From the UHGV virus genome UHGV-0101699: a stretch of DNA of 64,000 nt. The stretch is one strand, 5' to 3'. Under the pieces are notes generated by a model. That model made no database searches, was not told the origin of the DNA, and worked only from the letters and a program-made list of their open reading frames with translations. This DNA comes from a virus. Below are positions 8,574-42,861 of this stretch, in pieces. Made by a program: the position numbers and the translations under genes. Positions within the stretch are counted from its first letter, which is position 1; every line of letters starts with the position of its first letter.

Positions 8574-8637
8574 AAAATATGAAAATTATCGCAATATAAC
8601 CACGCTACGAATGAGAAAGGCATGGAGCTGCAGGTAA

Positions 8638-9048: not shown

Positions 9049-9057
9049 CGATCAGCC

Positions 9058-9675: not shown

Positions 9676-9769
9676 AAAACCTCTTTACAGCTAAATGGCT
9701 CGTACCTAAGTGTACGCTCTGTTATCAAAAGCGACAAATCAAAACGGCCCCAAACGGAGCCGTATTGTA

Positions 9770-11543: not shown

Positions 11544-11690
11544 GTTCGTTGTGACGCCAGATGCTTATCTTCTGGTTGCTTCAACGAGCTGCAATTCATC
11601 ACAACGGTAAGGGCATTCAGGGAATCAGATCCGTCGCGAACAGCCAAAGAGCGCGCCTTCCTTGCTGTCGTCCAAATACCCTTACCGTTG

Positions 11691-11765
11691 TGGCGATGGT
11701 GGGTGGATTCGAACCACCGACCAGTTGATTAACAGTCAACCGCTCTACCACTGAGCTACACCATC
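11691..11765 (-). tRNA. tRNA-Asn (anticodon GUU)
   Basis: reverse complement GATGGTG-TAGCTCAGTGGTAGAGC-GGTTGACTGTTAATCAAC-TGGTC-GGTGGTTCGAATCCACC-CACCATC-GCCA. Confidence 0.75.
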
Positions 11766-16230: not shown

Positions 16231-16276
16231 GTGATGTCCTCCACAACCAGAAATAAAATTATTACATGAAAATATG

Positions 16277-16290
16277 TAAGTAGCTACTTA
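16277..16290. promoter_or_regulatory. TAAGTA-family palindrome TAAGTAGCTACTTA
   Basis: perfect 14-bp palindrome in divergent region. Confidence 0.5.
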
Positions 16291-16518
16291 TCAAAAGACA
16301 GCGAAGAGGGACATAATGGCACCAACCCAACACAGCAGTGCATAGGCCACAAGAGCGTTTAGCTCGGAGCGAAGCTATCTATCAAGACTTAACCTTACTA
16401 ATGCTGTTCGTACTCTGCTAACATCTTAAAGCGCACAGCAATGTGTCAGGGTATTGACCACCCTGATTGATAACAAACGCCATAAAATCAGAATGCGTTT
16501 TGCATAGAAGAGGAAGGT

Positions 16519-17685: not shown

Positions 17686-17690
17686 CCATG

Positions 17691-17715
17691 TTGGCTGCCC
17701 AAAGAGGGCAGCCAA
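17691..17715. terminator. bidirectional hairpin TTGGCTGCCC-AAAGA-GGGCAGCCAA between convergent genes
   Basis: 10-bp perfect stem, 5-nt loop. Confidence 0.7.
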
Positions 17716-17724
17716 CAATACACT

Positions 17725-26666: not shown

Positions 26667-28112
26667 TTAATTTAATTGCTCACTACTCATGGCCACGCCT
26701 GTATCGAAGGTATTCTGGTTTGTATTTATGGCGTCGCCCCCTTCTGATGAGTTAATTTTATTCTCCAGCGCTTCAACTCGTTTAATCAGGACCTTCACCG
26801 CCGCCAGCGTGTCCATCATTATCACGTTGTTGTCGAGCTGAAGGCGTTCACTGTTAACCTGCTTATTACCATCCAGGTACGAAATATTAACGTGTTTCAC
26901 GTATTGCTCGTCTACTTCCTCGGCCTGCTGCGCGATGATCCCCCGGCGGACGCGGTTCTGTTCGTCGTCGTTATAGACGAACGTCACCAGCTCCAGCGCC
27001 TTTATGCGGTCTACTGACTGCTGCCCATCAGTAGGCGTGATATCGTGCTTCAGGCGAGCGTCAGACGTCCCCAGAAACTGCACGCTACCGCGCTGGCTTC
27101 CGTAGATATTGCCGTCGGCCAGGAATTGCCAATACTGTATTGGTTGCGAAAATCCACCAACAGAAAGAATTAGTCGGTGGTTTGTCCCTACCTGCTCTTC
27201 GAACCACATAGCCGCCTGTCCACCATCAACGTTGCCATCACTACCGCGCGTACTAAATCTTGACGTAAAACGTGGCGCTTGTAACACGGTGCCATTTGCT
27301 ATGTTTCCAGGGTCAGTGTTTAATCTGGCAATGAAGGCTTGCCCGTACAGATCGCCGTACTGCGTAGCAATGCCATAAACCCCGAGACCGCCACGGACTC
27401 GCAGCCCCGGATAAACCGCTAAAGCCCCGTCTTCGGTGATAATTCGATGCGTATAATCTGCAGAGCTACCTTTGTGGTGAAAATCAATGTACGGCGTTGT
27501 GTCGCTGCTGATTTCCAGGTTTCCGGCGTCGATGGCAGTGAACTGTGTATTGCTATTCTTCCTGAGAATTTGCCCTGCAGCCGTTATAGTGGCACTGAAA
27601 GTAACCCCCTTACTGAATATCTGCGTCTGTGTGAACGTGTTTGCTGCGCTCGTCTTCGCTGAATCTTTCAGTGAGTTCCTGAGTTCCGCGAGGTCAGATG
27701 CTTTCGCCATCCCAGATACAGCAGGAACAGTCACAGACGTACCTGTTATAGGGTCTGTCATCGTAATGTCGCCGCTTCCGGTCAGGGCTGTAGACCATCC
27801 TTGGACAACGTTACGCCAAAGAGTAAATGCACTGGCTAGTTGGTTCGCAAAAGACGATGTGCTGGCAGTTTCTGACGTGATAATTCCATATTTCGCACCA
27901 GAAAAAGCAGTTGTTATGTTTCTCGTCAGGGTCAGTTGAGTGTCATTATTTACTGATTTGATGGCATACAGATCAGCACTTCCATTGCGATAAATGACTA
28001 AAATTGAACCCTCTTGAATACCAAGTGCGGGCTCCGACCACTTTGTTGAAATACCAGTAACCTTTGCCTGGTTTGCTGCACCCGTTACGGTGCCAACTTC
28101 ATACATTGCCAT
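26667..28112 (-). CDS. side tail fibre with C-terminal intramolecular-chaperone (peptidase S74-like) domain
   Basis: 481 aa; C-terminal SDARLKHDITP...IKALELVTFVYND... matches S74 autoproteolytic chaperone signature (S-D-x-R-L-K). Confidence 0.75.
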   Translation of the reverse strand: MAMYEVGTVTGAANQAKVTGISTKWSEPALGIQEGSILVIYRNGSADLYAIKSVNNDTQLTLTRNITTAFSGAKYGIITSETASTSSFANQLASAFTLWRNVVQGWSTALTGSGDITMTDPITGTSVTVPAVSGMAKASDLAELRNSLKDSAKTSAANTFTQTQIFSKGVTFSATITAAGQILRKNSNTQFTAIDAGNLEISSDTTPYIDFHHKGSSADYTHRIITEDGALAVYPGLRVRGGLGVYGIATQYGDLYGQAFIARLNTDPGNIANGTVLQAPRFTSRFSTRGSDGNVDGGQAAMWFEEQVGTNHRLILSVGGFSQPIQYWQFLADGNIYGSQRGSVQFLGTSDARLKHDITPTDGQQSVDRIKALELVTFVYNDDEQNRVRRGIIAQQAEEVDEQYVKHVNISYLDGNKQVNSERLQLDNNVIMMDTLAAVKVLIKRVEALENKINSSEGGDAINTNQNTFDTGVAMSSEQLN

Positions 28113-28164: not shown

Positions 28165-31100
28165 TTAAGCCAGAGAGATGGAGCCAGTAGTTCTGTACAT
28201 CGAGACAACCCCTGTAAACCGGAACTGACCGCTATCGCCACGATTCGGCCACTGAATGGTAATCTGGTGACGTTGACCGAAGTTTGACGCCGGGATACGG
28301 ATTGAGAAGATTGATGTTTCAAAGTCCTTGCCATCGTTTCCAGAGTCAAAAGTCCAAACGGTCGTTTCATCAACGCGAATTGTTACGTTCTGACGCCATA
28401 CCTGAACAATCGCAACGGAACCATTGAACACCATACGCCGTTCAAAGGGCATACCGTCAATCGTTGCAATCAGGTAGCGCGTGCCGGATGAGGTATTCCC
28501 GGAAGCTGGCCAGTTTTTAACAACACGGTCGGTCATTGTCACAACGTCACCAACAATTTTATTGGCCTGAACAGTGCCAAGCACAGTGCAGTTCTCGTTA
28601 ATAGTCACGTTATTAAGCACACCAGTATTTGCGTGAACTTCACCACGAATAACTACGTTGTTGAACTGTGAACTACCGTCTTTTCCAATTCTCCAGCCAC
28701 TTGAACCGTTAACGAAATTGTCAGATCGGATTTCACCGCCAATTTTTGCATTGGTGATGGAGCCATCCTTAATCACAGCGGCATTCATGTAGGCAACGCC
28801 ATTTTCCACAACAAATGGTGTGGTCGTGTTTCCGTTAGAGGTATTGATTAAGCCGAAGCGATCAGCCTGAACCAGAAACTGGCTCTGCAAATTTTTGCCA
28901 TCGATACCTAAAGCGATACCAGCAGCATACTTTTTACCGTTGCTGTTGGTTTCCATTTTGACCATCCAGGTACTGTTAACGTTGCCGTTTTCGACAACCG
29001 TTTTCTTCAGCTCCTGCAGCTCGGCTGACTGGCCTCCTACCTGAGCTGTCAAATTCGTCTGCTGCTGAGACAGTGCGCTTATCGTTGTGGCCTGGGTCTG
29101 CTGAGTTGACTTAATTGCCGCCAGAGAGGTGGTGGCGTTATTCAACTCCGTCTGGTTTTTGATGTTTGCCGATGCCTGCGCGTCAATTTGCGACTGCAAG
29201 CTGGTATTCAGCGACGACTGCGTTTTCTCGTTGTTGGTGATGGTCTGCGCCATCTGATCAACCTTCGAAGACGCATCATTCACCTGGGACGTCAAAGAGG
29301 ACAGCTGAGACGCCTGGGATGTCACCTGCCCTTCTACATAGGTAACACGTGAGGTAAGGCTGGTGAGCGCGGATGCGTTCGCATTAGCCGAATCCTGTGC
29401 CTCTTTTGCGTCCGTGATATCGGTGACAACAACGTCATCGATATATAGATCATACCCCGGTGTACCAGTGCCAGTTGTGCCGCGGGTAGATACCCAAAAT
29501 GCGCCGCGAGTGTGGCCAGCGGCTACACGGAGCGTACCGGTGAATTTCTTCCATGCGCCTCTTGCACCCAATGCGGCTTCATTGATAGTGATTGCCGTCG
29601 GCCAGTTATTGTTGTTGGCAGCGTTTTGGGTCTGCAAACCAACGAGCGTTGACCACCCAGAGGATGGCGACTGATCTGCCGGCATCATCGCCCAGAGTTC
29701 AATGCGGAATACCGCATTTTCACGCAGAGCAATCCACTTACCGATGGTTTTATCGCTGTTTCCGCCCTCACCGGCGCTGCGGGAAACACGCAACGACTTC
29801 GTTCCGCTTCGTTTCTGAGAGCTGACGACGACCGCACGCGAGCCGCTGATCTGCTGGTTTTCGGAGTACGTCTCCAGAGAACCATCAAACCACGGGTTGC
29901 TCCCCATCGCCTGAACAGTGCTCAAAGAGTTTTTGAGCGAAGTTGTCTGGCTGCTCTGGGTTTCAATTTCTTTCTCGTTCTGCGTGACGCGGTTCGTTAA
30001 TGCCGTTAACGCAGCTGCATCCGCTTTCTTCGAAACATTTGTGTTTGTGGTCGCAAGGTCATTCTTAAGTTGCGTAACCTGGCTGCCCTGGCTGGTGATG
30101 TCATTCTCTGTCTTGGTCACACGACTATCGAGTTTAGTGATCGCGCTCGAGTTCGCCTGAGTTTCAACAGAGTCGGTCACATCGACGACATAAAAATCAT
30201 CAAAGTACATCGCGCCTGCGGACAAGAAAGCAGTGAACTGAACGTCAGCAACGACATCCTTTGTCGCCTTCCAGGTCCAGGACACTTCCTGCCAGTTCGA
30301 AGTGAACGGGCCATAAGCCTTACTTGCGATTAGACCGTTACCTTCTGCCACACGGAATTTTGTGTTGTCAGTCGACTGAATGGTGGTATTAGGGTCCTGC
30401 TTTGCCCAGATGCCAATTTTGTACGACCGATCCTTTTTGAAGGAGATCTTCTGGCCCACGCCTGCAGAACCACCCGCCGCCAGTTTGGCGGCTTTGGTGC
30501 CAAGATGTGGAACCTGCAGCGTTACCACCGTGGCAATCCCGCTCCAGCCTGTATAGCCCTCCGTACCACGCTCAAAAGACGGGTTTACGATCAGGTTCCC
30601 GGGGATCTGGCTTGCTGCATCCACGCTGGCGTTACTGGACGCAAGGCTGTTTTCCAGTGCCGTTGTCGAGGAGCTCAGGGAGTCAATATTATCCCCCTGG
30701 GTCTTCACTGTGTTCTGGAGCGTGGTAATTGCCGACGCGTTCGCATCAGCCTTCATCATCACACCGCCGGCGGCGCCCAGTCCCATCATTACCCCGTTCA
30801 CAAACTCGACTGAGGTCGAGATGTGGGCGGTGCCGTCGCCACCGGTTGGCGCACGCAGTTCCAGACCATCGCCAGGCTTCATGCCTTTGCGGCCAAGGAG
30901 AATGTAGGCACCACGATACGGTAGAGAGTTGACGACTTCGGATGTGCCACCAAGAGATTCCAGGGCAGACAATACTTTACCTCGGTTGCCAGTTGGCTCA
31001 TCGAATGTCAGGACACAAACGTAAGTCCCACTGGCCAGTGCCTCGATATCAGCCGACATCGTGGCACCATTATTCGCGCTGCCAAAGACATCGTATGTTT

Positions 31101-34100
31101 TGGATGTCGCAATCACCGTTGATCCGTCGCTGTGTTTTGCAAAAGTGACCAGCGCCCAGCTGCGACCAGGGGTAAACAGGTTTTTGCCGCTTTCATCAAA
31201 AACCCCAGGAGTTACGCTGTTGCCATTCCCCCGTGCAGTGACAGTAAACACAGTGCGACGGTTCATCGAGGCCTGCAGGCTGGTAATGCTACTGTTCGCC
31301 GCGGTTAAATCGCCCCCCTGAGATGTCACCGTGTTCCGGAGATCCTGCAATGCAGAAGCATCAGCTTTCTTGGCAATATTGTTCTGAGCTGTCGACAGCC
31401 CGTTCTCCAACGATGTGGTGCGATTTCCGATAGAGCTAATGGAAGTGCCTTGCTGATTCACTTTCGTTGTCAGCGAATCCACAGCCGACGCACTGGCGCT
31501 ATCAGACGGAGACTCGTTCCAGTCGGAAACAACGTTACCTACCTCAAACTTCGGACTGTTGATGTACACCGTCTGGTCTTTGGAGGTATTGCTCTCGATA
31601 CGGCACAGAATCAGGCGCTTGGTGCCCGTGGTAGGTGTCTGTTTCCACTTAACCCAATAGCGGGCCCATGAAGTGGTCAGCGTGAACTGCGCACGACCAT
31701 CAGTGTTGTTACCTTTCGCACCCTGGCTGGTCTCGATAGACGTTGTGGTGTTCGGATTGTAGAAGAACGCCGTCATCGTCTGGCCAGTAACGCCGCCTTT
31801 CGCATAGAAGCTGTAAACGTACTCACCTGCATCGACCGGCGACTCAAGCGTGATTTCCCGCAGATCCTTGTAACCGGAGCCGGCTTTTACAGTTGCGCCA
31901 ATTACCGCATTACCACGATACGTATCGCTGACAACGTTCGACCAGCCGGTCATATCGCCGGAGTTCTTGATCAGGTTTGTACCGCCGACAGAAATTGCAT
32001 CAACCTTGTTGTTCAGATTCGTGACAGAAGAACTCGTTGAGTTAATGTCTTTTTCGGTCTGGGTAACACGGTTGGTCAGTGCCGTCAGAGCATTTGCGTC
32101 CGCTTTTTGAGCAACGTTTGCATTTGTTGTTCTCAAATTGTTCTCAAGATTGGTAGTGCGTGTACCAATACTTAAGATGTTCTCCCCCTGCTGATTTACC
32201 GTAGAGGTCAGCGAATCAACCGCTTTCGCCGTGGCGTCGAGGGAATCCTGGACTTTGGAGGAGTCGGTTACGTTCCGCAGATGCCAGTCAGTCACATACC
32301 AGACGGTGCCGAATGGGCTGGACTGGTTAATTTGCAGGAATGGACGGAAGAAGCCGCGATCGACAATCCCCTGAGTAATTTTGAATCGCCAGGTTACTCG
32401 CTGCCATGTGGCCGACGCCTTGCGGTTGCCGCCGGATGACAGAGGCGCGCCCACGCTGCCGCTTGGCCTTGTTGCGGTTCCGAGATACAGGTTGAAATCA
32501 GCGGAGCCGGTACCACACGCGACGAGAGCAGACATTTCATAGACATCCCCCAATGTCGCCGGAATAGCAGCAAAATTTGGGTGATGGTCGCGAGCCGCAA
32601 TGCGTGCGACATAAGCGTATGGGCAATTGGCTGGCACGCCCTCAGACGAGCTGGAAACCACAGTGAAGCCCATCTGACTAAACTCTGGGTCAAATGTCGG
32701 GTTGCTAATCAAATCGCCACTTGTCGCATTCCCTGCGCGTACAGATGAATTAAGCGCAGTGATACTGCTATTCGCAGAGGATAAGCCCGACTCTGTTTGA
32801 TCGACGCGCCCGGACAACACGCTTAAAGCGCTCTGATCCGCTTTTTTACTGACGTTGTTATTGGTCGTTGCCAGGTCATTTGTCAGTTTGGTGATGCTGT
32901 TACCCTGACTGGTGATCTGGTCACCCTGTTGGGAGACGGTCGAGTCCAGTGTCGAAATCGCATTGGCGTTAGCATCTGCTGTACTTTGCGCATTGTAGGC
33001 ATCAGTTACTTCGGTAATGACCAGGTCATCAATGAGGAATGAGTTTCCCGCCTTAACGCTGCTAACGTTAGGAATAGAAATCCTCACCATTGCCTGCTTA
33101 ATACCGCTCTTCGTTGATTTCAGGTAACCAGAAACCTTCGTCCATTGAGTTGAAGAGAGATCCTTTGCCGCTTTGGTAACTGCCGGCCACTGCCAGGAGT
33201 TGTCCTGATACTGGAGCGACAAACCGATAGAGATCTGTGCATTCTCGGCCATAGCGGTACTCTTGGCATCCCGCTTAACCCAGCATTCCATATAGAAGAC
33301 TGCGTTATCGCGTACCTGGAAACCGCTGAAAATGTGATTATCGCTGTTATCAGTTGCGTTAGCGTTGTAATCATTCGGACGCGTCACACGGATGCACTTA
33401 TTACCGCCATGCGAGTCATCAGTGGTCACGATAACGCGATTATTTGATAGATTGTGGCCAACCGCGTAGCTTTCAAAAGTGCCATCAGGAAGCAGATTAG
33501 CGCCGCGTTTGGATTGCTGGTTCAGAGAGCTGCTGAGCGACGTAATGTTGCTGTTCGCCGCCGTCAGACCGGACTCCGTCTTCTCTACCCGACCTGTCAG
33601 CGTAGTGACTGCCGACTGATCGGCCTTTTTCGCGATGTTTGCGTCAGCGGCTTCGAGGTCATTGGTCAACTTAGTGATGCTGTTGCCCTGGCTGGTGATT
33701 TTGTCACCCTGCTGTGTCACCGTGCTCGACAACGTAGACAGCGCATCGCTATTAGCCTTGATCTTCACCTCATCCGTGATATCAAAGACCTTAAATGTAT
33801 CAACCCAGATTTCGGCATTAGCCGGGTGCGCGTAAAGCTTAAAGTTCTGGCCATCAGCGTTAGAGGCAGTAAGTCCAGTCTCCCAGGTAATGGTCTGCCA
33901 CTCACTGGTTAGTGTGACGTTTTTATCTTCATAATTGCTGTCGGTCTGGCCGATTTTATTCTGGCGCCGGATCAACATGTTCATCGCCCCGGACACGCCC
34001 TTGGCTTTAACCACAACACGATATTTGCGCTGACCATTAAGCGGCAGCGGCTTGTTGTTGTTGGAGAAGATGCCTGGGCTGGTAGTGGTCGTCCGGTTCA

Positions 34101-37100
34101 GCTTAACCCCAGCCTTACCATCACCGAAGTTGCCGAAAGTGACGCCTGCCGGATACTGGGTATCCCACGCAGTTGCACCCTGCAGGAAATCGTAGTTCGG
34201 GATCAGGTTGTCACCGGCGTTTCTGGCAGCGGTCAGGGTGTTATTCAGGTTCGTGATGCTGTTACCCTGGCTGGAAATCGTATCCCCCTGCTTGGAGACC
34301 GTATTTTGCAGCGTAGACAGCGCCTGTGCATCTGCCTTATTCGCCAGATTAGCGTTGGTCTGTTCGAGGCTATTTCGCAGGTCAGTAACGCTCTGTGAGG
34401 TGCTCGTGACGCGATCACCTACGGTGCTGACGTTTGAGGTGACGGCGCTAATGGCATTCGAAAGCGCGTTCATCCCAAGAGCAGAATTCAGCTGGGCTAC
34501 CTTCTCGGACAGTTTAAAACCGAGGTTAATGTAAGCCTGACCAGTCCATTGGTTCACCAGGAACTCAACCGTGCTCCAGCCAGCTTTCAGATCAAAGCTA
34601 ACCGTATTCCAGCTCGCATTACCAAAGGCAACCCTAACACCGTTCACGTACACGGCGCCCGTATCATCAAAAACACGAGAACCTGGTGCCATAGTGATGG
34701 TGGTATCAGCATTGACTTTCACGAAGGCTTTGTAATGCGCGATCACGTAACTGCCGGCGCTCGCAAAGTCCAGTTTTGCCGCGTCAGGAACCTCATCGAT
34801 CGAGATTGGCGCCTTACCGTTGATATCGCTAAAGGTCGGCTCAGTGGTATTGTTCGCCAGTTGTACGTTGTATACGCTACGCACCCACATGTTCTGGCGG
34901 CCGTTAACCATCTGGTTTGACAGCGAAGTGATGCTGTTGGAGTTCGACGTAATGTCTTTTCCCTGCTGGGTCACGGTGCTGTTGAGGGTTGATAACGCAT
35001 TGGACGTCGCATCAATCGCTTTCTCATTGCTCACGTCAACGCAGAAGACGTCATCGAGATACATATAGCCGGAAGCGACACTTGCGCGCAGAGACACAAC
35101 CACGCTGGCGGTTTTGGCTGGCGTATACTCGCCGCTAATAAGTGCCCAGTTAGTCGACAGCCCGGCGCCGGTGATCGGGATATCCTTTAACGGCGTCAGA
35201 TCTGCGTTTCGAAGGCTAATCTTGTTGTTGCCGGCATTATTGATCGCGAAGTCAGCGGATTTGCGAACCCATGCGCCGATACGATAAGTCTTGCCAGCCT
35301 GCAGCTCGACCGTTTGATTGCAGCCTGAGTCACCGCCAGAGGCCAGTTTACCCGCCTGGATGATGTATTTCCCCGATTTGGGGTTTTGGGCCTCCAGCAG
35401 AGTCCAACCAACATACTCCCAACCTTCGAAACCACGTTCAAAAGAGTTGTTTTTGAGCATGTTGCCGATGATCGCTTTCGAGGCATCCGCATCAGCATTG
35501 GCGTTATCCAGCGAGTTTGACAGGCTGGTGATGCTCTGGGACTGGCTGGAGATCTGATTTTCGGCAGCAGTTACGCGGTTTGTCAGATTAGTCACAGCTG
35601 AGGCGTCGGCTTTGTTCTTGATGCTGTTCTGCATCGAAGTGATCTGCTGCCCTTGGCTGGTAATGGTGCCCTCAACAGACGATACCCGAGAGGTCAGAGC
35701 ATTGGTGGCACTGGCGTTCGCCTCAATCGCCAGGGCATCAGTGACGTCAACAAAACCAACATCATCGAAGTACTGGGAACCGGTTTTGAGAGAAGACATG
35801 ATCGATACGTCAACTTTACCGGTCAGCGTCGCCTTCCAGGTATCAGAGACCTCTTTCCATGTTTCATCTTTGGGCAGATTCTCCGGACGGATCGGAATCT
35901 CTTTGAGCAACGTGGCTGCGCCAATACGCAGTTTGTTGTTGCCAGGGCTGCTGATTACCGCATCCGTGGTGCAGCGCACAAAAGAGGACAGCTTGTATGT
36001 CCGCCCTTCGACGACGCTTACAGATTGCGTGATTTGCACCGTGCCAGCGGCGCAAACAAGAATTTTACTACCAGAATGGGGCGCACTCGCCTTGATAATA
36101 CTGGATACGCTGTTCCCTGCAGACCACCCTGCCAGGTCACGCTCAAAGGAGGCGTTAACCAGCAAATTGCTCGGATTGCTTTTGGCAGTATCGGTATCGC
36201 TCTGGATATCGCTCAGCGAGTTATTCAGGGTGGTGATGCTTTCACTCTGGCTGCTAAGGGTTTTATCCTGCTGGGTTACGGTCGACTGCAGACCCGTGAT
36301 CGCCTTGCTATTCGCAGACACACCAGACTCAACACTTCCTACGCGATTGTCCAGCGTAGACAATGCCGCACCTTGTGATTTAAGGGTGTTGCCCTGCTCT
36401 TCAACCTTCTGGGAAATTGTCTGTACTGCACTGGCATCGGCCTTCTGGCCAAGGCTTGTTTGCAACCCGGTAATCTTGCTTGCCTGGGAAGCTTGTTCAG
36501 TGGACAGCGTATGCAGCTCTTCTGCAACAGAGGCTTTGTTTCTGTTGAATTCAGTCTGCAGGGATTCACGCGCACTCGCTTCCGCAGCATCGGCAGTGAT
36601 ACGAGCATTTTTCTCCTGATAGATCAGACCGGAGCGAATGTCGTCCAGATTTCCGCTTTCAGATGAACCGCGGATTTGTGCAGCCAATGTGCTGCGCGCC
36701 TGCGCTTCGGCGGTATCTGCATTCGCACGAGCCTGCTGCTCTTCCTGTAACGCGGCCATGCCTGCGCCCGGCGTCGGTCGACCAACGGCGATCCAGTCGA
36801 ATAACAGGTAATTGTCCGCATCCTGACCCGAAGTGAAATCGAAGCGGAAACGACGAATCGTTGTCGAATCCCGCCACTCAATGTCGTGCAGGGTCAGAAT
36901 CGCAATACCCTTGTCGTCGTATTCCGGCTCATTGATAACCACGGAGCGACCAGCATTCCAGCCAGTTTCATCAGCGCCGATCCAGAACATTCTGGCGTTC
37001 CAGGTTGGGTTGCCAACCTTTTTAACGCGCATCTTAATGAAACGATAAGCATGGGCATCGATCGTCAATCCGTTAGGGGAACGACAGGTTGAGGTCGGAT

Positions 37101-40100
37101 TGTTCGCTTTCAGCCAGCCATCGCTGGTGACGCTCATTGGCGTGTAGCCATTATCATCTTCCGTCCAGCCTTCGGCGTCCTGGTCGAAATACCAGATTTT
37201 CAGAGAGTCAAACTGTTCCCCTGTGCCAGCGGCAATCTGCGAGATCTGTCGCGCGAGGTTTTCGTCACCGGAGGTCACAACCTCAGACAAGCTATCGATA
37301 GAGGTTTTCAGCTCATTCTTCGCGCTCAGCAGTTGGTCGGCCGCTTGCTTGGCTGCATCATTAACATCTGCAATACGGTCATTCGTCTCTTTCTGAATGG
37401 CCGCAGTCAAATCTTTGCTGGTCTGGGACAGCGACGTTGTCAGTGATGACTGCGCTTTCTTAATCTCCTGCGACAGAGCAGCGTCGCCGTCTTTAATCGA
37501 CTGTTTTGCAGCTTCAATTTGGCTGTTTACATTGGAGATGTTGGTATTGATCGTCTGGTTGACCGTATCGATATTGTCGACAATTGTCTGATTGACGGTA
37601 TCAATGTCCTCTTTCAGCGACTGATTGACAGAGTCAACCTGCGCCTTAATTTCGGAGGAGGTTTGCGCAAGGTCGTTTTCAACTTGCTGAATAGACTCGT
37701 TGACTGAGTTCTGAACCTCGCCAATGGCGTTGTCTACCGCCTCCTGAGTGGCTTTGCTGTCGATTTCGTCGAGCAGCTCTTTGCCGAGTTCAGAAGATGT
37801 GATCTTGTCTTTCAGGAAAGACAATACGTCGCGAGTGGTGGCCTCTGTACCGAGGTTCGAGTTCGGCTGGCCTACCATCCCACGTTTGTTTACCGCACGA
37901 ATCCAGTAATACCAGGTCTCGTTGTCACCCAGCCCAGCGTGAGTGAAAGTCGTTGTGGCGGCCTGAGCAATGAGTGTCGCGGTGTCCAGCTTATTTGTTT
38001 TGGACGCATACACGTTGATCTGCGCGAGGTCGACTGAATCAGGGTTAACCCAATTCAATACCACGTTACGATAATCCCCCACCGCGGTCAGTGATGTGGG
38101 CGCCCCTGGCGGCGTCATCGTGCCTTTTACCTGATAGACAGCAGTAATAATCTCGGATTTTTTGCCGCCGAAGGAAACGGAATACAGCTGGAAGTCATAT
38201 CGCCCATTTTCGGCAACATTGACGATTTCATATTGTTCTTCCGTGGCGCGGGCAGATTGCCAGTTGGAGACGTTGCCCTCGTCGGAGCGGCGCCAGCTGA
38301 CCCAGTATTCTGGTGATTTACCTTCCCAGGCAAGCATCAGCTTCACGGACAAGTTGCCCGGACTGGACAGATAGGTGCCTTCTGAGATGACCAGATTGCT
38401 CGGTTTGGAATATGTGGGATCAAGAACCGTCGTATTTTCTGGAACGAGCGCGGCCCCGTTATCAATCGCCTGGTACTTAGATGCATTGTTCTGCACCACC
38501 GTGATATCAAACGACCCCGGGGTTTCACCTTGCGCGATAGCGACAACGCGCGCCCGCATTGGAACCAGGTCTGGTTCGGTGATCGTCCAGACGCCATTCG
38601 CTACTGGTTGATCGGCTGTGGCCAACGCCGTCTTGAAGGTAACTTTAGTGATGTTGTCGCCGGTCTCGTTGATGTCTCGCTCAACGATTTTGCCTTCCTG
38701 ATTGATGATGCGGATGAAGCTACCGCTCTTTTTCAGAGAGACAGGTGCATCGAGGGTGATGCTGTTTTTGGTGAAAGAGACAATGCGACCGGAATTGCGT
38801 TTGCCGGCACGATATTTGTTCTGAATCAGAACGGTTTCGCCCGGCATCAGGAACGAGGCGTCCAGGCCCGCGGTAAAGGTGATCATGTCTGACTCCATAC
38901 GCGCGGTATAGAGCAGCCACAAACCTACACGATGAGCCTGACCACGGCTGGTGCATCCGAACGCAACGGCCTCGGTCTTGCGCTCCCCGTATCGGGCCAT
39001 CGCTTCCTGATCTTCAACATACTCAACGTTCTGCTTATAGCCGTCTTGTTTGTTGTTATAAGTGATCAGCGCTACGGACGGCCGGTCTTTTCGAGCAGAG
39101 CCTTTATAGGTAAACAGGCCATCTTTTACGTTTGCGTTGGTAAACAGCATGACAGGGTCAGACGGGCTGTCCTGCATGATATTCACCATGCCACCAGCCC
39201 AGAAAACCATGCCACGGAAAGCGCCGGCAATATCCTGAATCAGACGATAAGCGTCCTGACGACTGGTGATCTGGGTGTTGATTGCAAAGCGTTTTTCTTT
39301 GCCGCCAAAGCCATCATCAACCTCTTCGTCGCAGTAGCGACCGATCTGATAAAGCTGGCCAAGGTCAATCATTGACTCCGAAACAAATTTGCCGAGGCCA
39401 TAACGAGCATTGGTCAGCAGATCGAACAGAATCCAGGCAGGGTTGGAAGACGACAGAAGCTTAAATGTTCCATCCCAAACGCCGTTATAAGTGTTCGTAT
39501 TTTCATCATAATTCGAAGGCACACGGATTTTGAGGCCACGGATAAGATACGAACGTGACGGCATAGAGCTACCAAACTGCTCAGAGTTAACCTTAAGGCC
39601 AACCAGAACGGAGTTCGGGTAGTTCATTGGGGTATCAACGATCTCACCGATAGAGTCGACCCAGGTATCGTTAAAGAGATACTGATCGTTGCTGTCGGCG
39701 GAGAGACGAAGCACGCGCACTTTATAGGCACGCCCAGGCTTTGGAAGCTGGATTTCGTAACTGCGGTAGTAGACACCAGTCTTTTTCGCAGTCAGCGTCA
39801 CGTCAGAGCTGCTCTCACCTGTAGCAATCACGTCATAGAAAGAGCCATTGCCATTGGCCAGCTGGAACTTAAACTGGACAGAAGTACCGTTTGTGTCCCC
39901 TGTTTTCTTGTCAATGCTACGCAGCGACGGGAACTTCATGATCACTCGGACACGATCAGCGTCGTCGTTATCGATGGCGACCGTAACCGCGTTTGTGGTT
40001 TTCAGCTGTGTGTTAACGGCCTTTGGCGTTTCGACAAAATCGAAACCAGGCATCGGGCTTTGGTCTTGCGAACCATCCCGGAAATCCCAGGTTACACCGG

Positions 40101-40341
40101 AATAGTTGAATGATCCGTCTTCGTTCTCCAGCGCCACGCCATCGATGAAGATAGATTTAGCGCCGTTAATCAACCCGCCAACAACACCTTCCCCGAGCAG
40201 ATCGAGGATAGACGCCATGGCCCGCGAATTAACGGTATCATCCGCTTCAACTGGTGTACGGCTTGAGCCTGAGCTCTTTTTGCCGCCCGCTCCCGCAATC
40301 AGGAGGGGCAATCTCTTTTTCTTGAACTGATCCATGTTCAA
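28165..40341 (-). CDS. J: giant central tail fibre / host-specificity protein, lambda gpJ-like N-terminus plus ~10 tandem coiled-coil + CBM-like modules (4058 aa)
   Basis: N-terminus GSSRTPVEADDTVNSRAMASILDLLGEGVVGGLINGAKSIFIDG resembles lambda J start; FN3-like TPPGAPTSLTAVGDYRNVVLNWVNP; position after I-K-L-M-H homologues. Confidence 0.85.
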   Translation of the reverse strand: MNMDQFKKKRLPLLIAGAGGKKSSGSSRTPVEADDTVNSRAMASILDLLGEGVVGGLINGAKSIFIDGVALENEDGSFNYSGVTWDFRDGSQDQSPMPGFDFVETPKAVNTQLKTTNAVTVAIDNDDADRVRVIMKFPSLRSIDKKTGDTNGTSVQFKFQLANGNGSFYDVIATGESSSDVTLTAKKTGVYYRSYEIQLPKPGRAYKVRVLRLSADSNDQYLFNDTWVDSIGEIVDTPMNYPNSVLVGLKVNSEQFGSSMPSRSYLIRGLKIRVPSNYDENTNTYNGVWDGTFKLLSSSNPAWILFDLLTNARYGLGKFVSESMIDLGQLYQIGRYCDEEVDDGFGGKEKRFAINTQITSRQDAYRLIQDIAGAFRGMVFWAGGMVNIMQDSPSDPVMLFTNANVKDGLFTYKGSARKDRPSVALITYNNKQDGYKQNVEYVEDQEAMARYGERKTEAVAFGCTSRGQAHRVGLWLLYTARMESDMITFTAGLDASFLMPGETVLIQNKYRAGKRNSGRIVSFTKNSITLDAPVSLKKSGSFIRIINQEGKIVERDINETGDNITKVTFKTALATADQPVANGVWTITEPDLVPMRARVVAIAQGETPGSFDITVVQNNASKYQAIDNGAALVPENTTVLDPTYSKPSNLVISEGTYLSSPGNLSVKLMLAWEGKSPEYWVSWRRSDEGNVSNWQSARATEEQYEIVNVAENGRYDFQLYSVSFGGKKSEIITAVYQVKGTMTPPGAPTSLTAVGDYRNVVLNWVNPDSVDLAQINVYASKTNKLDTATLIAQAATTTFTHAGLGDNETWYYWIRAVNKRGMVGQPNSNLGTEATTRDVLSFLKDKITSSELGKELLDEIDSKATQEAVDNAIGEVQNSVNESIQQVENDLAQTSSEIKAQVDSVNQSLKEDIDTVNQTIVDNIDTVNQTINTNISNVNSQIEAAKQSIKDGDAALSQEIKKAQSSLTTSLSQTSKDLTAAIQKETNDRIADVNDAAKQAADQLLSAKNELKTSIDSLSEVVTSGDENLARQISQIAAGTGEQFDSLKIWYFDQDAEGWTEDDNGYTPMSVTSDGWLKANNPTSTCRSPNGLTIDAHAYRFIKMRVKKVGNPTWNARMFWIGADETGWNAGRSVVINEPEYDDKGIAILTLHDIEWRDSTTIRRFRFDFTSGQDADNYLLFDWIAVGRPTPGAGMAALQEEQQARANADTAEAQARSTLAAQIRGSSESGNLDDIRSGLIYQEKNARITADAAEASARESLQTEFNRNKASVAEELHTLSTEQASQASKITGLQTSLGQKADASAVQTISQKVEEQGNTLKSQGAALSTLDNRVGSVESGVSANSKAITGLQSTVTQQDKTLSSQSESITTLNNSLSDIQSDTDTAKSNPSNLLVNASFERDLAGWSAGNSVSSIIKASAPHSGSKILVCAAGTVQITQSVSVVEGRTYKLSSFVRCTTDAVISSPGNNKLRIGAATLLKEIPIRPENLPKDETWKEVSDTWKATLTGKVDVSIMSSLKTGSQYFDDVGFVDVTDALAIEANASATNALTSRVSSVEGTITSQGQQITSMQNSIKNKADASAVTNLTNRVTAAENQISSQSQSITSLSNSLDNANADADASKAIIGNMLKNNSFERGFEGWEYVGWTLLEAQNPKSGKYIIQAGKLASGGDSGCNQTVELQAGKTYRIGAWVRKSADFAINNAGNNKISLRNADLTPLKDIPITGAGLSTNWALISGEYTPAKTASVVVSLRASVASGYMYLDDVFCVDVSNEKAIDATSNALSTLNSTVTQQGKDITSNSNSITSLSNQMVNGRQNMWVRSVYNVQLANNTTEPTFSDINGKAPISIDEVPDAAKLDFASAGSYVIAHYKAFVKVNADTTITMAPGSRVFDDTGAVYVNGVRVAFGNASWNTVSFDLKAGWSTVEFLVNQWTGQAYINLGFKLSEKVAQLNSALGMNALSNAISAVTSNVSTVGDRVTSTSQSVTDLRNSLEQTNANLANKADAQALSTLQNTVSKQGDTISSQGNSITNLNNTLTAARNAGDNLIPNYDFLQGATAWDTQYPAGVTFGNFGDGKAGVKLNRTTTTSPGIFSNNNKPLPLNGQRKYRVVVKAKGVSGAMNMLIRRQNKIGQTDSNYEDKNVTLTSEWQTITWETGLTASNADGQNFKLYAHPANAEIWVDTFKVFDITDEVKIKANSDALSTLSSTVTQQGDKITSQGNSITKLTNDLEAADANIAKKADQSAVTTLTGRVEKTESGLTAANSNITSLSSSLNQQSKRGANLLPDGTFESYAVGHNLSNNRVIVTTDDSHGGNKCIRVTRPNDYNANATDNSDNHIFSGFQVRDNAVFYMECWVKRDAKSTAMAENAQISIGLSLQYQDNSWQWPAVTKAAKDLSSTQWTKVSGYLKSTKSGIKQAMVRISIPNVSSVKAGNSFLIDDLVITEVTDAYNAQSTADANANAISTLDSTVSQQGDQITSQGNSITKLTNDLATTNNNVSKKADQSALSVLSGRVDQTESGLSSANSSITALNSSVRAGNATSGDLISNPTFDPEFSQMGFTVVSSSSEGVPANCPYAYVARIAARDHHPNFAAIPATLGDVYEMSALVACGTGSADFNLYLGTATRPSGSVGAPLSSGGNRKASATWQRVTWRFKITQGIVDRGFFRPFLQINQSSPFGTVWYVTDWHLRNVTDSSKVQDSLDATAKAVDSLTSTVNQQGENILSIGTRTTNLENNLRTTNANVAQKADANALTALTNRVTQTEKDINSTSSSVTNLNNKVDAISVGGTNLIKNSGDMTGWSNVVSDTYRGNAVIGATVKAGSGYKDLREITLESPVDAGEYVYSFYAKGGVTGQTMTAFFYNPNTTTSIETSQGAKGNNTDGRAQFTLTTSWARYWVKWKQTPTTGTKRLILCRIESNTSKDQTVYINSPKFEVGNVVSDWNESPSDSASASAVDSLTTKVNQQGTSISSIGNRTTSLENGLSTAQNNIAKKADASALQDLRNTVTSQGGDLTAANSSITSLQASMNRRTVFTVTARGNGNSVTPGVFDESGKNLFTPGRSWALVTFAKHSDGSTVIATSKTYDVFGSANNGATMSADIEALASGTYVCVLTFDEPTGNRGKVLSALESLGGTSEVVNSLPYRGAYILLGRKGMKPGDGLELRAPTGGDGTAHISTSVEFVNGVMMGLGAAGGVMMKADANASAITTLQNTVKTQGDNIDSLSSSTTALENSLASSNASVDAASQIPGNLIVNPSFERGTEGYTGWSGIATVVTLQVPHLGTKAAKLAAGGSAGVGQKISFKKDRSYKIGIWAKQDPNTTIQSTDNTKFRVAEGNGLIASKAYGPFTSNWQEVSWTWKATKDVVADVQFTAFLSAGAMYFDDFYVVDVTDSVETQANSSAITKLDSRVTKTENDITSQGSQVTQLKNDLATTNTNVSKKADAAALTALTNRVTQNEKEIETQSSQTTSLKNSLSTVQAMGSNPWFDGSLETYSENQQISGSRAVVVSSQKRSGTKSLRVSRSAGEGGNSDKTIGKWIALRENAVFRIELWAMMPADQSPSSGWSTLVGLQTQNAANNNNWPTAITINEAALGARGAWKKFTGTLRVAAGHTRGAFWVSTRGTTGTGTPGYDLYIDDVVVTDITDAKEAQDSANANASALTSLTSRVTYVEGQVTSQASQLSSLTSQVNDASSKVDQMAQTITNNEKTQSSLNTSLQSQIDAQASANIKNQTELNNATTSLAAIKSTQQTQATTISALSQQQTNLTAQVGGQSAELQELKKTVVENGNVNSTWMVKMETNSNGKKYAAGIALGIDGKNLQSQFLVQADRFGLINTSNGNTTTPFVVENGVAYMNAAVIKDGSITNAKIGGEIRSDNFVNGSSGWRIGKDGSSQFNNVVIRGEVHANTGVLNNVTINENCTVLGTVQANKIVGDVVTMTDRVVKNWPASGNTSSGTRYLIATIDGMPFERRMVFNGSVAIVQVWRQNVTIRVDETTVWTFDSGNDGKDFETSIFSIRIPASNFGQRHQITIQWPNRGDSGQFRFTGVVSMYRTTGSISLA
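28980..37210. repeat. in-frame tandem module repeats inside J gene (coiled-coil + beta-sandwich units; DNA motif GTGATGCTGTTrCCCTGGCTGG recurs at ~32889, 33674, 34254, 34921, 35530, 36225)
   Basis: protein-level repeats N[LP][LI]xNxSFER/GxxGW ... and DNA-level recurrences read directly; antisense ORFs in this region mirror the repeats. Confidence 0.8.
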
Positions 40342-40351: not shown

Positions 40352-40963
40352 TTACAGTTGGTCTATGGTGATTGAAGAACTCACAATCTGTGAGCCAACT
40401 AAAATTTCCTCGCCGTAATTAAGCTGAACCGGGTTTCCCTGGTTGCTGGTGTTTTGAGGCCCATCGAAATAAAACGAATCCGTGTTATCAGCCTGTCTGA
40501 CAGACGCATTTGATGCCTGCGGCGAAATCAGCATGGACACACCGCCCATCATCAATGACATCCCTCCCATCATCAGCGCAGATGACGCACCCGCGGTAAG
40601 ACCAAAGCCAATCGCACCGACAGCGATCATCGCGGCGCCTACGAAAGTCTGGAACCACCCAAACGCCTTACCACCGCTGCCACGTGGTACGGGAGTAATG
40701 CGGATTTTTGCGATATTTTCCGACTCGCCCATCATCTGGTATTCGGTGTCGTCCATTGACCACTTGTGGCCCTGCTTATTTGTGACCTGGATGTGGTACT
40801 TATCGAAGTGGTTACGGTTACGCTTAATCCAGGCTTTAAAGCCCGGGCGATTCGCCTCAATCAAATCGATGGCTTGTTTGGTGTTGCGCACCTTCAATTT
40901 CCAATGGCGGCCAAAGTTCTTTGCCATCGCACCGCCGAGCTGAACATGAACTAATTCAGACAC
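40352..40963 (-). CDS. I: tail assembly protein I-like
   Basis: 203 aa; position between K and J; C-terminal hydrophobic/Gly-rich segment. Confidence 0.65.
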   Translation of the reverse strand: MSELVHVQLGGAMAKNFGRHWKLKVRNTKQAIDLIEANRPGFKAWIKRNRNHFDKYHIQVTNKQGHKWSMDDTEYQMMGESENIAKIRITPVPRGSGGKAFGWFQTFVGAAMIAVGAIGFGLTAGASSALMMGGMSLMMGGVSMLISPQASNASVRQADNTDSFYFDGPQNTSNQGNPVQLNYGEEILVGSQIVSSSITIDQL

Positions 40964-41748
40964 GTCTCGTCTCCCTTGAGTAAATCCCTGTGACGCAGGT
41001 GATGCGTCGTGTGCTTCTGATACATCCCACCGTAATAAGCCCGACAGCTGAGACGGTCGATCTGGTGATGCATGATCATGCCGTCGCCGATGTATACCGC
41101 GCAGTGATCTGGCATTTTCCCGTACTGGATGAAGAAGATGTCGCCGCGCTGGGGTTCCGTCCCCGGCGCCATGCGGACAAGTCCTTCATTTCGGTAGTTC
41201 TGGTCGAGGATGTCGTTGTCCCCCGTGTACCAGGAAGGAATATGCAGGTGGGCGTTTGCATTCAGCTCAACGTCAAATTCACGCTTTAGGTAATCGCGGC
41301 ACAGCATCCAGCAATCAAACACACCGAATACGTATGGGCGCCCGAGGTAGGGCATCTCAAAACCACACGGATAAATGACGTTCATTTCGCTAAAGTGGAA
41401 TGGCATATCGCTTTCCACATTTTTGCGAATTGCCAGAATCATCCACGGTAGTTCCGTCGCCTCGCACCCGGAGCGATCCGGGTCTGACGCCTCTGCGCTG
41501 CGCTCAACGTGAGAGTGCCAAATAGCGATCACTTCCCCAGCATCTTCGGCCGCAATAATGTCGCTGGCACGCATGACAAAATCCTCACGTGGCGTTTCAG
41601 AGACATTCATCGCTTCCATAAAGCGATATTTCTCACCCTGTGTGCGCACCAGAAAGCCACACGCTTCATTCGGGTAACGTTGGATAGCGCAGCGGTAGAT
41701 ATCCTGCATGACTTCTGAGCCCAGCTCAGGTAACGTCTGGTTACTCAT
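40951..41748 (-). CDS. K: tail assembly protein K-like (MPN/JAB + NlpC/P60 domains)
   Basis: JAB motif EACGFLV...IAIWHSHVERSAEASDPD; NlpC/P60-like GDIFFIQYGKMPDHCAVYIGDG; ORF extends to 41970 but MSNQTLPEL start at 41748 abuts L stop. Confidence 0.75.
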   Translation of the reverse strand: MSNQTLPELGSEVMQDIYRCAIQRYPNEACGFLVRTQGEKYRFMEAMNVSETPREDFVMRASDIIAAEDAGEVIAIWHSHVERSAEASDPDRSGCEATELPWMILAIRKNVESDMPFHFSEMNVIYPCGFEMPYLGRPYVFGVFDCWMLCRDYLKREFDVELNANAHLHIPSWYTGDNDILDQNYRNEGLVRMAPGTEPQRGDIFFIQYGKMPDHCAVYIGDGMIMHHQIDRLSCRAYYGGMYQKHTTHHLRHRDLLKGDETCLN

Positions 41749-42442
41749 ATCGTGTCGCCCCAATAAATCCGCCAAAATGAATAACGCCATTCGCGAAGTA
41801 GTTGCGACGAGCATTACAGGCGTCGTAACGCTTGGTGCAGTAGTCGGCGCCGGCCAAAGAGGTTTGCTGGTTGTTTTTGTCGAAATATGGGCCGGTGTAG
41901 CCACACTCTGTTCCGCGATATTTCCACGGGCAGCTGTTTTTGATGATCTGACGATACGGCAGTTGAACACCCATCAGATCTAAGACGCTGGACAGCTCGA
42001 ATTCGACATACTGGTGTGTCTCCAGGGTCTTCTGTTCGACGAACCACATTTCATCAGCAAAATGCTGACTTGGGTCTGCGGTCGGGTTTCCATCCGGAAA
42101 GTTCACCGCGTCCAGAAAACGTGCCAGCGTCATCTTGCGAATGATTTTGCAGCCAATCAGATCGTCATTGGCCTGCAGCTCGGCAGAAATTACACCGTCG
42201 TAGTTGGAAACCTGAATCTTTGGACGAGGAAGTGTTCCCTGACCGCTTTTATCAAAGCCAGACGCTTTAATTGGCCACGGCTCATAGGAAACTCCCTGCC
42301 AGACAATTGGCTGGCTAAGCCCGTTGGTGCCGGCATGGAAATACAACTTGCCGCCGGAGGTTGTCACCGACATATCCAGCTCGAACAACTCAATGAGCGC
42401 AGAAGGCGATAAACTCTGAATATCAGCTCTAATACCCATCAC
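41741..42442 (-). CDS. L: minor tail protein L-like
   Basis: 233 aa; C-terminal Cys cluster CGYTGPYFDKNNQQTSLAGADYCTKRYDAC. Confidence 0.75.
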   Translation of the reverse strand: MMGIRADIQSLSPSALIELFELDMSVTTSGGKLYFHAGTNGLSQPIVWQGVSYEPWPIKASGFDKSGQGTLPRPKIQVSNYDGVISAELQANDDLIGCKIIRKMTLARFLDAVNFPDGNPTADPSQHFADEMWFVEQKTLETHQYVEFELSSVLDLMGVQLPYRQIIKNSCPWKYRGTECGYTGPYFDKNNQQTSLAGADYCTKRYDACNARRNYFANGVIHFGGFIGATRYE

Positions 42443-42525: not shown

Positions 42526-42861
42526 TTAAGACTCAAAAACCTGTCTAAATGTTGCCGTAAGCACTTGATAACCTGGGTAACGTTTTACCGTATGGCTATC
42601 ACAAACCACGATAATTGCTTTGCCTCTTGGGTTAGTCCAAACGAATGACTCCACCCCTGCGCGGGCAGTCAAAAAATCATCAACGTCGTTTACCACGTCA
42701 TGGCTGCGGGTGAACGTGAGAGACCACTCTTCTTTAATCCGATTGAGCCCCTGCGACTGGCGCTGCTCGTAATCATCGCCGTAGTTCAGCACGGTCACGT
42801 TAGGCTTTACCGTTTTCTCAGACTCATAATCTGGATACCAATTAAATACTTTCCTCGACAT
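42526..42861 (-). CDS. M: minor tail protein M-like
   Basis: ORF 42526..43050; likely start MSRKVFNWYP at 42861 (112 aa, lambda M-size) just downstream of tape-measure stop. Confidence 0.6.
   Translation of the reverse strand: MSRKVFNWYPDYESEKTVKPNVTVLNYGDDYEQRQSQGLNRIKEEWSLTFTRSHDVVNDVDDFLTARAGVESFVWTNPRGKAIIVVCDSHTVKRYPGYQVLTATFRQVFES

Follow-up and report, generated by a model that had tools for sequence, protein, structure and literature searches.

What would a tailed phage do with a central tail fibre more than four thousand residues long, and of what parts would such a fibre be made? The question is raised by the virus genome UHGV-0101699, of which we analysed a stretch of 64,000 nucleotides (hereafter the window). 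On its minus strand, positions 28165-40341 form a single open reading frame (ORF) of 4058 codons with zero internal stops, as stated in an original prediction made from the sequence alone, which took the product for a lambda-J-like central fibre expanded by about ten tandem units of coiled coil and carbohydrate-binding module (CBM). Our analyses show that this architecture is real and striking; its kind is already known as a family (phiKO2 gp21, the S8 phages) and has been partly noted in the literature. Scans of single modules here resolve 11 globular modules that fall into four fold classes. We think it probable, if far from certain, that the protein is a multi-lectin central fibre that provides a depolymerase-free hold on glycans and a passage through the capsule, followed by a lambda-like contact with the receptor.

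Both ends of the protein align with lambda J. Residues 22-862 match residues 3-837 of lambda J (8iyk_J) at 5.4e-144 in phmmer and include Pfam FNIII-A_GpJ at 103-237 (3.1e-31) and Phage-tail_3 at 359-521 (4.5e-31), which bears out the predicted gpJ-like N terminus with its FN3 segment; the PHROG scan matched phrog_31 'central tail fiber J', and the hub also matches the F2 pyocin fibre at 7.5e-144. At the opposite end, residues 3775-3971 align with residues 133-323 of a C-terminal fragment of lambda J (residue 713 onwards), and the distal part matches the lambda J C-terminal fragments 8xcj and 8jvm, as well as 9wca. The last ~270 residues had been thought unique, which does not hold, as residues 3778-3907 are a Phage_Tail_Tip domain (PF09327, DUF1983; 1e-42) and only the final ~125-150 residues vary. 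Because both ends align with lambda J, the ~2,900 additional residues are inserted exactly at the junction between its last FN3 domain and its distal fibre. The whole protein scores 580.4 bits against NCBIfam lambda_TipJ (NF049904), for which the cut-off of 1950 bits is unreached, and we would accordingly call it a family relative of lambda J, not its equivalent. Among relatives that are otherwise 95-99% identical, the last 125-150 residues of J occur as at least three unrelated alleles, and the 481-aa fibre encoded downstream co-varies with them (97% identity to relatives with the same tip allele, 77% to one with another). In all 15 of the 15 Escherichia coli plasmid copies listed, the match ends at nt 11684-11699, that is, their tip allele is unlike that of the window. 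Several tip alleles are what would be expected of the receptor-binding end of a J protein.

Between these ends, the repeating region (residues 1046-3775) is built on a 30-aa heptad motif, A[LIV]xxLxxxVxxxxxxIxSxxxxITxLxxxL, present in 19-20 copies with per-copy E values of 1e-8 to 1e-16. The copies were found with a hidden Markov model (HMM) iterated from one linker, and windowed BLAST was also used; BLAST of the whole protein against itself returned the identity match only, and a simple heptad score was dropped because it flags globular parts too. Across 20 copies A1 and V9 are invariant, I23 is nearly so, L5 is kept in 18 of 20, position 16 holds I, L or V and position 30 L, V or M, and S18 is found in 16, T24 in 18, L26 in 18 and N28 in 14. 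The hydrophobic positions 2, 5, 9, 16, 23, 26 and 30 follow an unbroken a/d heptad register, in which sites 12 and 19 carry mostly polar residues. In most linkers the motif occurs twice, at a distance of 44 residues; two short ones have a single copy. The non-globular segments number 12 and total 1,218 residues, including a 185-aa coil after the hub, which aligns with the fibre 9l9p_S as far as residue 1046, and a 130-aa coil before the tip. They separate 11 globular modules, ten of which (130-170 aa) occupy linker-delimited slots, with one more (M0) after the first coil. From the N terminus to the C terminus, the gene and its parts are:

28165..40335, minus strand: giant gpJ-type central tail fibre gene, 4056 aa.
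37762..40335, minus strand: residues 3-860, lambda-J-like tail-tip hub with FN3 domains (Pfam, lambda J match).
37207..37761, minus strand: residues 861-1045, CC0, first long coiled coil (in Pfam only Apolipoprotein and SF-assemblin, of coiled-coil type).
36676..37206, minus strand: residues 1046-1222, M0, CBM11-like (phmmer 2e-5 to residues 525-617 of the R4C megatron, 8gtc_M).
36175..36675, minus strand: residues 1223-1389, Lk0, coiled coil with 3-4 motif copies (motif HMM).
35734..36174, minus strand: residues 1390-1536, M1, CBM_4_9 (Pfam 34.6 bits).
35470..35733, minus strand: residues 1537-1624, Lk1, two heptad motifs (motif HMM).
35026..35469, minus strand: residues 1625-1772, M2, CBM_4_9 (Pfam 37.3 bits).
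34900..35025, minus strand: residues 1773-1814, Lk2, short, one motif; holds the copy of DNA repeat D1 at 34920-35013.
34507..34899, minus strand: residues 1815-1945, M3, PA14-like lectin fold (AlphaFold2 and Foldseek).
34210..34506, minus strand: residues 1946-2044, Lk3; holds the D1 copy at 34245-34338 and a breakpoint of the M4 deletion.
33769..34209, minus strand: residues 2045-2191, M4, CBM_4_9 (Pfam 29.3 bits).
33505..33768, minus strand: residues 2192-2279, Lk4; holds the D1 copy at 33666-33759 and a breakpoint of the M4 and M5 deletions.
32998..33504, minus strand: residues 2280-2448, M5, CBM_4_9-like, type B (Pfam 23.3 bits, slightly below the cut-off).
32710..32997, minus strand: residues 2449-2544, Lk5; holds the D1 copy at 32883-32976.
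32260..32709, minus strand: residues 2545-2694, M6, distant CBM-like (hhalign to M9; GTA_spike_fiber 22.8 bits, below the cut-off).
31975..32259, minus strand: residues 2695-2789, Lk6 (motif HMM).
31507..31974, minus strand: residues 2790-2945, M7, GTA head-spike-fibre type with a CBM-like fold (NF048003, 37.8 bits).
31240..31506, minus strand: residues 2946-3034, Lk7 (motif HMM).
30757..31239, minus strand: residues 3035-3195, M8, ILEI (FAM3/GG-type; Pfam PF15711, 36.7 bits).
30604..30756, minus strand: residues 3196-3246, Lk8, short, one motif (motif HMM).
30169..30603, minus strand: residues 3247-3391, M9, CBM_4_9 / CBM16-like (Pfam 38.1 bits; CBM16 of PDB 2zew, 2e-8).
29905..30168, minus strand: residues 3392-3479, Lk9 (motif HMM).
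29407..29904, minus strand: residues 3480-3645, M10, CBM_4_9-like, type B (Pfam 24.9 bits, slightly below the cut-off).
29017..29406, minus strand: residues 3646-3775, CCend, last coiled coil, abutting the tip domain.
28621..29016, minus strand: residues 3776-3907, conserved J distal fibre domain (Phage_Tail_Tip / DUF1983; Pfam 1e-42).
28168..28620, minus strand: residues 3908-4058, variable receptor-binding end (NCBIfam lambda_TipJ positions 999-1085, 2.7e-9).

The mechanical ORF list opens the frame at a TTG at 40341 (4058 aa); annotated relatives start at the ATG at 40335, two codons further in, with GGGAAG 10 nt before it, and the product most likely comprises the 4056 aa from that ATG.

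The assignment of the modules depends on scanning each of them singly against CBM_4_9 (PF02018; CAZy CBM4/9/16/22; gathering threshold 25.9 bits). Under these conditions M1, M2, M4 and M9 pass and zero matches are obtained for M0, M3, M6 and M7, whereas a Pfam scan of the whole protein finds zero CBM_4_9 anywhere, M8 included. Since the family is missed in the whole protein yet passes in four excised modules, annotation pipelines under-count such modules, a possible reason why '2-3 CBMs' were given for related phages. By profile-profile comparison with hhalign, M1, M2 and M9 are linked at 100% probability, M9 reaches M4 at 95%, M6 at 90% and M5 at 78%, and M5 reaches M10 at 100%, so that seven modules are joined. 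M7 passes NF048003 (37.8 bits for a cut-off of 36, with M6 at 22.8 and M8 at 15.9 below it), and its AlphaFold2 model (pLDDT 73.7) retrieves with Foldseek the sugar-binding folds of CBM4 (CBM4-2), CBM16, CBM22 and BT_4411 at E values of 7e-5 to 1e-3 and TM scores of 0.43-0.48. Pfam scans of single units and the structure prediction of one unit (M7, which lacks a Pfam match) had been proposed as checks of the CBM-like fold, and both of them support it. M0 resembles the roseophage R4C megatron, in which residues 482-629 are a CtCBM11-like carbohydrate-binding domain (PMC10276861).

Two modules belong to other folds. M3, overlooked in the original prediction, gives an all-beta AlphaFold2 model (pLDDT 79.5, pTM 0.80) whose top PDB match in Foldseek is the PA14 domain of Cea1A (6.5e-5, TM 0.55), followed by the PA14 domains of KpFlo2, Flo1/5, Epa1A, anthrax PA and MpIBP; against BFVD, it matches several phage proteins named 'PA14 domain-containing'. 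We accept PA14 at the level of fold only, as it is unsupported by sequence (Pfam gave none at E up to 10). A homologue search with M3 alone returned Klebsiella fragments only and hence a shallow alignment, in which an F-D-D followed by xxxVYVNG is nearly invariant; we presume that this F-D-D recalls the Asp-Asp calcium/sugar site of PA14 lectins and treat it as a lead. M8, which had been read as a ~170-aa insert inside a CBM unit, is instead a module in its own slot, with an ILEI match (cut-off 27 bits) that spans residues 3076-3153, about half of its 160 aa. The heptad linkers of the predicted tandem units thus stand, and the modules between them are 11, namely 8-9 CBM4/9/16/11-like jelly rolls, one PA14-like domain and one ILEI domain. 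The start N[LP][LI]xNxSFE, expected in every unit, occurs in five modules and the DVTD-type end in six. The prediction of a multivalent array was right about serial lectin-type modules, though not about one site repeated for avidity: because the modules are at most about 40% identical to each other, or unrelated, the array seems better described as multi-specific.

The DNA of the array shows how its composition changes. The core GTGATGCTGTTRCCCTGGCTGG (22 nt), noticed beforehand as shared between repeats, is real, although it has just three occurrences at up to 3 mismatches (0 expected). It sits within a 94-nt repeat, D1, which encodes the linker motif and is the sole sizeable DNA repeat of the gene, with four copies at 32883, 33666, 34245 and 34920 that are 61-71% identical and spaced by 783, 579 and 675 nt. 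Six near-identical copies from relatives were compared for module variants. M4 is missing in L004 and L006 (579-nt deletion), M5 in L007 (783-nt deletion) and M6 in L005 (738-nt deletion), L003 carries another M6, and L006 another M9 and M10. The lengths of 579 and 783 nt are also D1 spacings, and the junction overlaps of these two deletions, 74 and 59 nt, fall on D1 copies, so that the recombinational length variation foreseen for this repeat DNA is seen in real genomes, with the breakpoints of the M4 and M5 deletions in the linker repeat. Modules also move between phages. A block of ~3 kb with M5, M7 and M8 (30644-33628; J nt 6714-9698) is 94-95% identical in DNA to the N15-like Klebsiella phages 48ST307 and Kp4865-4, and the protein of these three modules is 96% identical to that of 48ST307, whose N-terminal J hub is just 33% identical. 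A near-identical block beside so divergent a hub implies lateral exchange of module blocks between unrelated backbones, and for M5, M7 and M8 points to a recent transfer. The comparison of relatives shows the module set to be edited both by recombination in conserved linker DNA and by block exchange with unrelated Klebsiella siphophages.

The gene is widespread in a recognizable type of element. Its 12,177 nt match, at full length and at least 98% identity, ~110 kb Klebsiella phage and plasmid records that include GArcari-2022a/b, vB_KpnS_p4727, vB_Kpn_1825-KPC53 and pJN2-26. Of the 605 matching plasmids in PLSDB, 301 hold at least 80% of the gene, which is found in about 300 complete plasmids at 95-99.5% identity, and in 15 complete E. 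coli genomes it lies on plasmids at 95-97% identity. The carrier records are non-mobilizable IncFIB plasmids of ~110 kb with a backbone of DnaB-type helicase, primase, ligase with AplA and a MipZ/ParA ATPase, and the J hub shares 70-85% identity with its counterpart in the SSU5-like E. coli phage Cyrano. The carrier is thus an SSU5-related Klebsiella phage-plasmid of ~110 kb, which fits the 'pKpn' group of PMC9600943, a family whose members carry resistance genes and whose host range is poorly understood (PMC9600943). In one E. coli plasmid, NZ_OZ501614.1 (L001, 6601-12437), an IS3-family transposase splits the tape-measure gene, and that copy of the element is probably a defective phage. Many homologues are labelled 'partial' at contig ends and many contigs of ~48-49 kb stop inside this gene; short-read assemblies routinely break in its repeats, and the gene is therefore poorly represented in draft genomes.

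How might such a fibre work? The most likely reading, which draws on the folds, the position of the gene, the host association and the data on S8 phages, is the following. By homology, the first ~860 residues and the homologues of M, L, K and I jointly build the hub at the tail tip. J proteins are trimers that function without cleavage; a trimer would be expected here as for every J protein, with the heptad segments forming a three-stranded coiled coil. Taking about 0.148 nm per residue for a continuous trimeric coil and about 0.15 nm per residue for the tape measure, the coil would extend over ~180 nm and the fibre, with nodes and tip, over roughly 200-260 nm (overall range about 180-260 nm), comparable to the tail length that the 1519-aa tape measure implies. 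At each node, one module would be presented in triplicate, and the different modules may bind several surface polysaccharides (capsule, O-antigen) weakly and reversibly. Such weak binding would hold the virion on heavily encapsulated Klebsiella while the fibre threads the capsule without a depolymerase, until the terminal domain meets a receptor in the outer membrane and, as in lambda, sets off ejection. Several points weigh against this scheme. Only four modules reach the Pfam CBM_4_9 threshold, folds of this type also serve as plain structural decorations, and the models of M3 and M7 are of moderate confidence, with shallow alignments and TM scores of 0.43-0.56. A tail tip ~200 nm away from the receptor-binding end would still have to get to the membrane. 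Finally, spots of the S8 phages are clearer on acapsular mutants, their entry into some hosts probably does not depend on binding the capsule, and capsule binding is not demonstrated by the published data (PMC9989827).

The distance between tip and membrane could be overcome if the fibre were an active tether, in which some or all of the 12 coil segments turn into compact beta-prism once the distal domain has bound its outer-membrane receptor, so that the ~200-nm fibre contracts step by step and reels the tip through the capsule, with the lectin nodes as ratchet holds on the polysaccharide; we regard this as a long shot. In the F7 pyocin central fibre, a 163-residue coiled coil switches to beta-prism upon receptor binding (2026 preprint, PMC12874032). 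With a crude regular expression, the fold-switch pattern SxSxxMxxLxS is significantly enriched in Lk0 alone (36175-36675), with 10 occurrences where shuffles give 2.4 (p about 0.002); in CCend it occurs 4 times where 1.6 are expected, short of significance (p about 0.06), and it is unenriched in the other linkers.

Other explanations compete with the reading that we favour. The array might be a spacer or ruler only, which makes the fibre long enough to span the capsule and whose modules are structural or hinge nodes, with the choice of host left to the C-terminal domain and the second fibre. This would agree with the better infection of acapsular mutants by S8 phages and the weak tie between their tropism and capsule type, with the several tip alleles that co-vary with the downstream fibre, and with the persistence in nature of variants without M4, M5 or M6. 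We nevertheless find it unlikely, though worth serious attention, because the slots have taken up lectin-type domains of four unrelated folds (CBM jelly roll, PA14, ILEI, GTA spike fibre) and modules are swapped at high identity between phages with differing scaffolds, a diversity and turnover that would be superfluous for a pure spacer. It is quite improbable that the modules serve adherence to the animal host by binding mucins or gut glycans and keeping virions in mucus, like Ig-like capsid decorations. ILEI and PA14 domains are indeed known as binders of eukaryotic glycans, and Klebsiella and E. coli isolates from the gut and the clinic contain the elements; however, the modules stand on a receptor-seeking central fibre and not on the capsid, and the units are tied to Klebsiella phages rather than to gut phages generally.

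An enzymatic polyprotein, or a hidden polysaccharide-degrading activity whose catalytic parts are targeted by the CBMs, seems very improbable to us. CBMs usually accompany enzymes, and this possibility has been suggested for receptor-binding proteins (RBPs) of S8 phages longer than 1,500 aa by Beamud et al., who also saw low, strain-dependent depolymerisation by these phages (PMC9989827). Against it, no catalytic, protease or beta-helix depolymerase family was matched in Pfam, PHROG and NCBIfam scans of the 4058 aa, each stretch of which is assigned to hub, coil, lectin-type module or J tip, and J proteins are not cleaved; we therefore rejected a depolymerase or other enzyme. The chance that the ORF is an assembly artefact, collapsed or chimeric in its repeats, is practically negligible. 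Short-read assemblies do break inside the gene and leave the partial homologues mentioned above, but many independently assembled complete plasmids and phage genomes contain its full 12,177 nt in colinear form, at 96.7-99.5% identity, and the D1 repeats, 61-71% identical over 94 nt, are too diverged to collapse. Mis-assembly, named beforehand as one of two dangers to the prediction, was accordingly rejected, given that the gene is present in some 300 complete plasmids and in several records of phages.

The multi-lectin fibre that we favour is encoded in the usual company of a lambda-like tail tip, in the order H-M-L-K-I, then the giant gene, then the 481-aa fibre gene with its chaperone, as the predicted I, K, L, M and H homologues were confirmed by Pfam or by the annotation of relatives:

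42905..47464, minus strand: tape measure protein of gpH type, up to 1519 aa (Pfam TMP_3 and Tape_meas_lam_C).
42526..42861, minus strand: gpM homologue (Pfam Phage_min_tail; gene limits from relatives).
41741..42439, minus strand: gpL homologue (Pfam Phage_tail_L, 1.7e-91).
40951..41748, minus strand: gpK homologue, JAB and NlpC/P60 (Pfam).
40352..40963, minus strand: tail assembly protein in the gpI position (annotation of relatives and same position; no Pfam match).
26667..28112, minus strand: second fibre protein, 481 aa, with an endosialidase-type intramolecular chaperone (Pfam Peptidase_S74).

Elsewhere in the window, positions 16001-18000 have a GC content of 0.395 compared with about 0.50, and a lone plus-strand ORF (16519-17685, 388 aa) with zero Pfam family matches lies there amid minus-strand genes; it is possibly an acquired accessory gene.

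Proteins of this kind are numerous. With one unit as query, tblastn retrieved 66 phage records, namely 54 Klebsiella phages, two 'Enterobacter' phages grown on K. aerogenes and ten Acinetobacter phages, in which the match covers ~80 residues at the C-terminal end of the query, mostly linker. HMMER with residues 2192-3391 against 1.84 billion cluster representatives gave 1,022 clusters at E<=1e-3, 145 of them at E<=1e-30, and many of the matched proteins measure 2,000-4,800 aa. Some relatives in public assemblies (the clusters of giant relatives come mostly from Logan assemblies) are larger still than the window protein, with 4,797 aa in P0259, 4,524 in P0315 and 4,356 in P0392. P0259, the largest checked, contains FNIII-A_GpJ, ILEI, CBM_4_9 and Phage_Tail_Tip, and P0315 has coiled-coil matches only in Pfam and may carry module types new to the family libraries. 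The 3,686-position profile phrog_2589 of PHROGs scores 4493 bits here. Homologue searches with shorter queries listed only proteins of up to about 1,600 aa together with many fragments at contig ends. A scan of species-representative genomes with one narrow peptide pattern confirmed five loci, four of them in Klebsiella, a result on which we place little weight as to taxonomic spread. The sole locus with another label, on a 52 kb contig of Limoniibacter endophyticus (NZ_BMZO01000013.1; L013, 1001-1483), encodes an A-type CBM module that is 45% identical, and may represent a genuine phage, contamination or a transfer. By these comparisons the window protein is no outlier; it is one of the large proteins in an established family rich in sequences, already sequenced many times. 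In the literature searched, we came across no study devoted to dissecting the J protein of the phage-plasmids.

The chief obstacle that Klebsiella puts in the way of phages is its capsule, and most phages of this host need depolymerases specific for a capsule type, a dependence that narrows their host range and limits therapy. Among the examples examined here, this fibre would be an extreme case of a depolymerase-free alternative. Its design joins a very long fibre, differing lectin-type modules exchangeable like cassettes and a receptor-binding end that can be replaced independently, and the gene is carried by a phage-plasmid family present in clinical isolates of Klebsiella and E. coli by the hundreds. 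The module map, together with the natural deletion and replacement variants, offers a handle for testing which module binds which glycan and for predicting or engineering host range.

Compared with lambda gpJ (8iyk, 8xcj), the window protein shares the hub with FN3 domains, the Phage_Tail_Tip, the H-M-L-K-I-J gene order and a variable, receptor-determining C-terminal end, but with ~2,900 aa of coil and 11 lectin-type modules in addition it is about fourfold longer than the 1132 aa of lambda J. Its nearest counterparts in architecture are gp21 of phiKO2 (3433 aa, 'similar to lambda J' in GenBank, with 22 copies of the same 30-aa linker motif) and the J of 48ST307 (3193 aa, 18 linker motifs), in which hub and tip are likewise split by heptad linkers with the same module families in the slots; these phages differ in their linear N15-like backbone, as opposed to a circular SSU5-like one, and at least 6-7 linker-delimited modules were counted in them, as opposed to ten plus M0. 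In phiKO2 gp21 (L009, 3115-13416) there is an internal duplication of ~1,210 aa, with residues 1405-1575 and 1701-1878 recurring at 2615-2785 and 2911-3088, and the duplicated modules keep identical best matches. The HSE3-like Klebsiella siphophages (~48 kb) have at least six modules. In vB_KleS-HSE3 itself (L010, 1179-10594), the J-like gene is annotated as three overlapping coding sequences, gp047, gp048 and gp049, which could reflect frameshift sequencing errors or real breaks, and gp048 is one PA14-like module that is 47% identical to M3.

Two more distant systems share single elements of the design. The 'evolved' Dit and Tal proteins of Gram-positive siphophages carry CBM modules on core tail-tip proteins, which add saccharide binding beside the true receptor-binding domain, but these are one or two BppA-type CBMs in hub loops, with no rod and no serial array (PMC7291167). 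The central fibre of F-type pyocins is also of J type, with a homologous hub and a trimeric coil directly N-terminal of a beta-prism tip; the F7 fibre has a single coil of 163 residues, whereas the window protein has 12 coil segments. The broad-range S8 Klebsiella siphophages (VLCpiS8a/b/c; Beamud et al. 2023) are the sole relatives with experimental host-range data that we found. Homologous units of coil and CBM were seen in VLCpiS8a and VLCpiS8c (H133, H139; tblastn). Their first RBP measures 2,309-3,201 aa 'with 2-3 CBMs' and their second carries an endosialidase chaperone domain (PMC9989827), which is the two-gene layout of the window, where the giant fibre with its CBMs precedes a second one with such a chaperone. 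The S8 phages are isolated and characterised phages with ~48-kb genomes, in contrast to the phage-plasmid studied here; they lack a depolymerase fold, produce no haloes and depend weakly on capsule type, and their authors propose that the CBMs aid in reaching secondary receptors through the capsule (PMC9989827).

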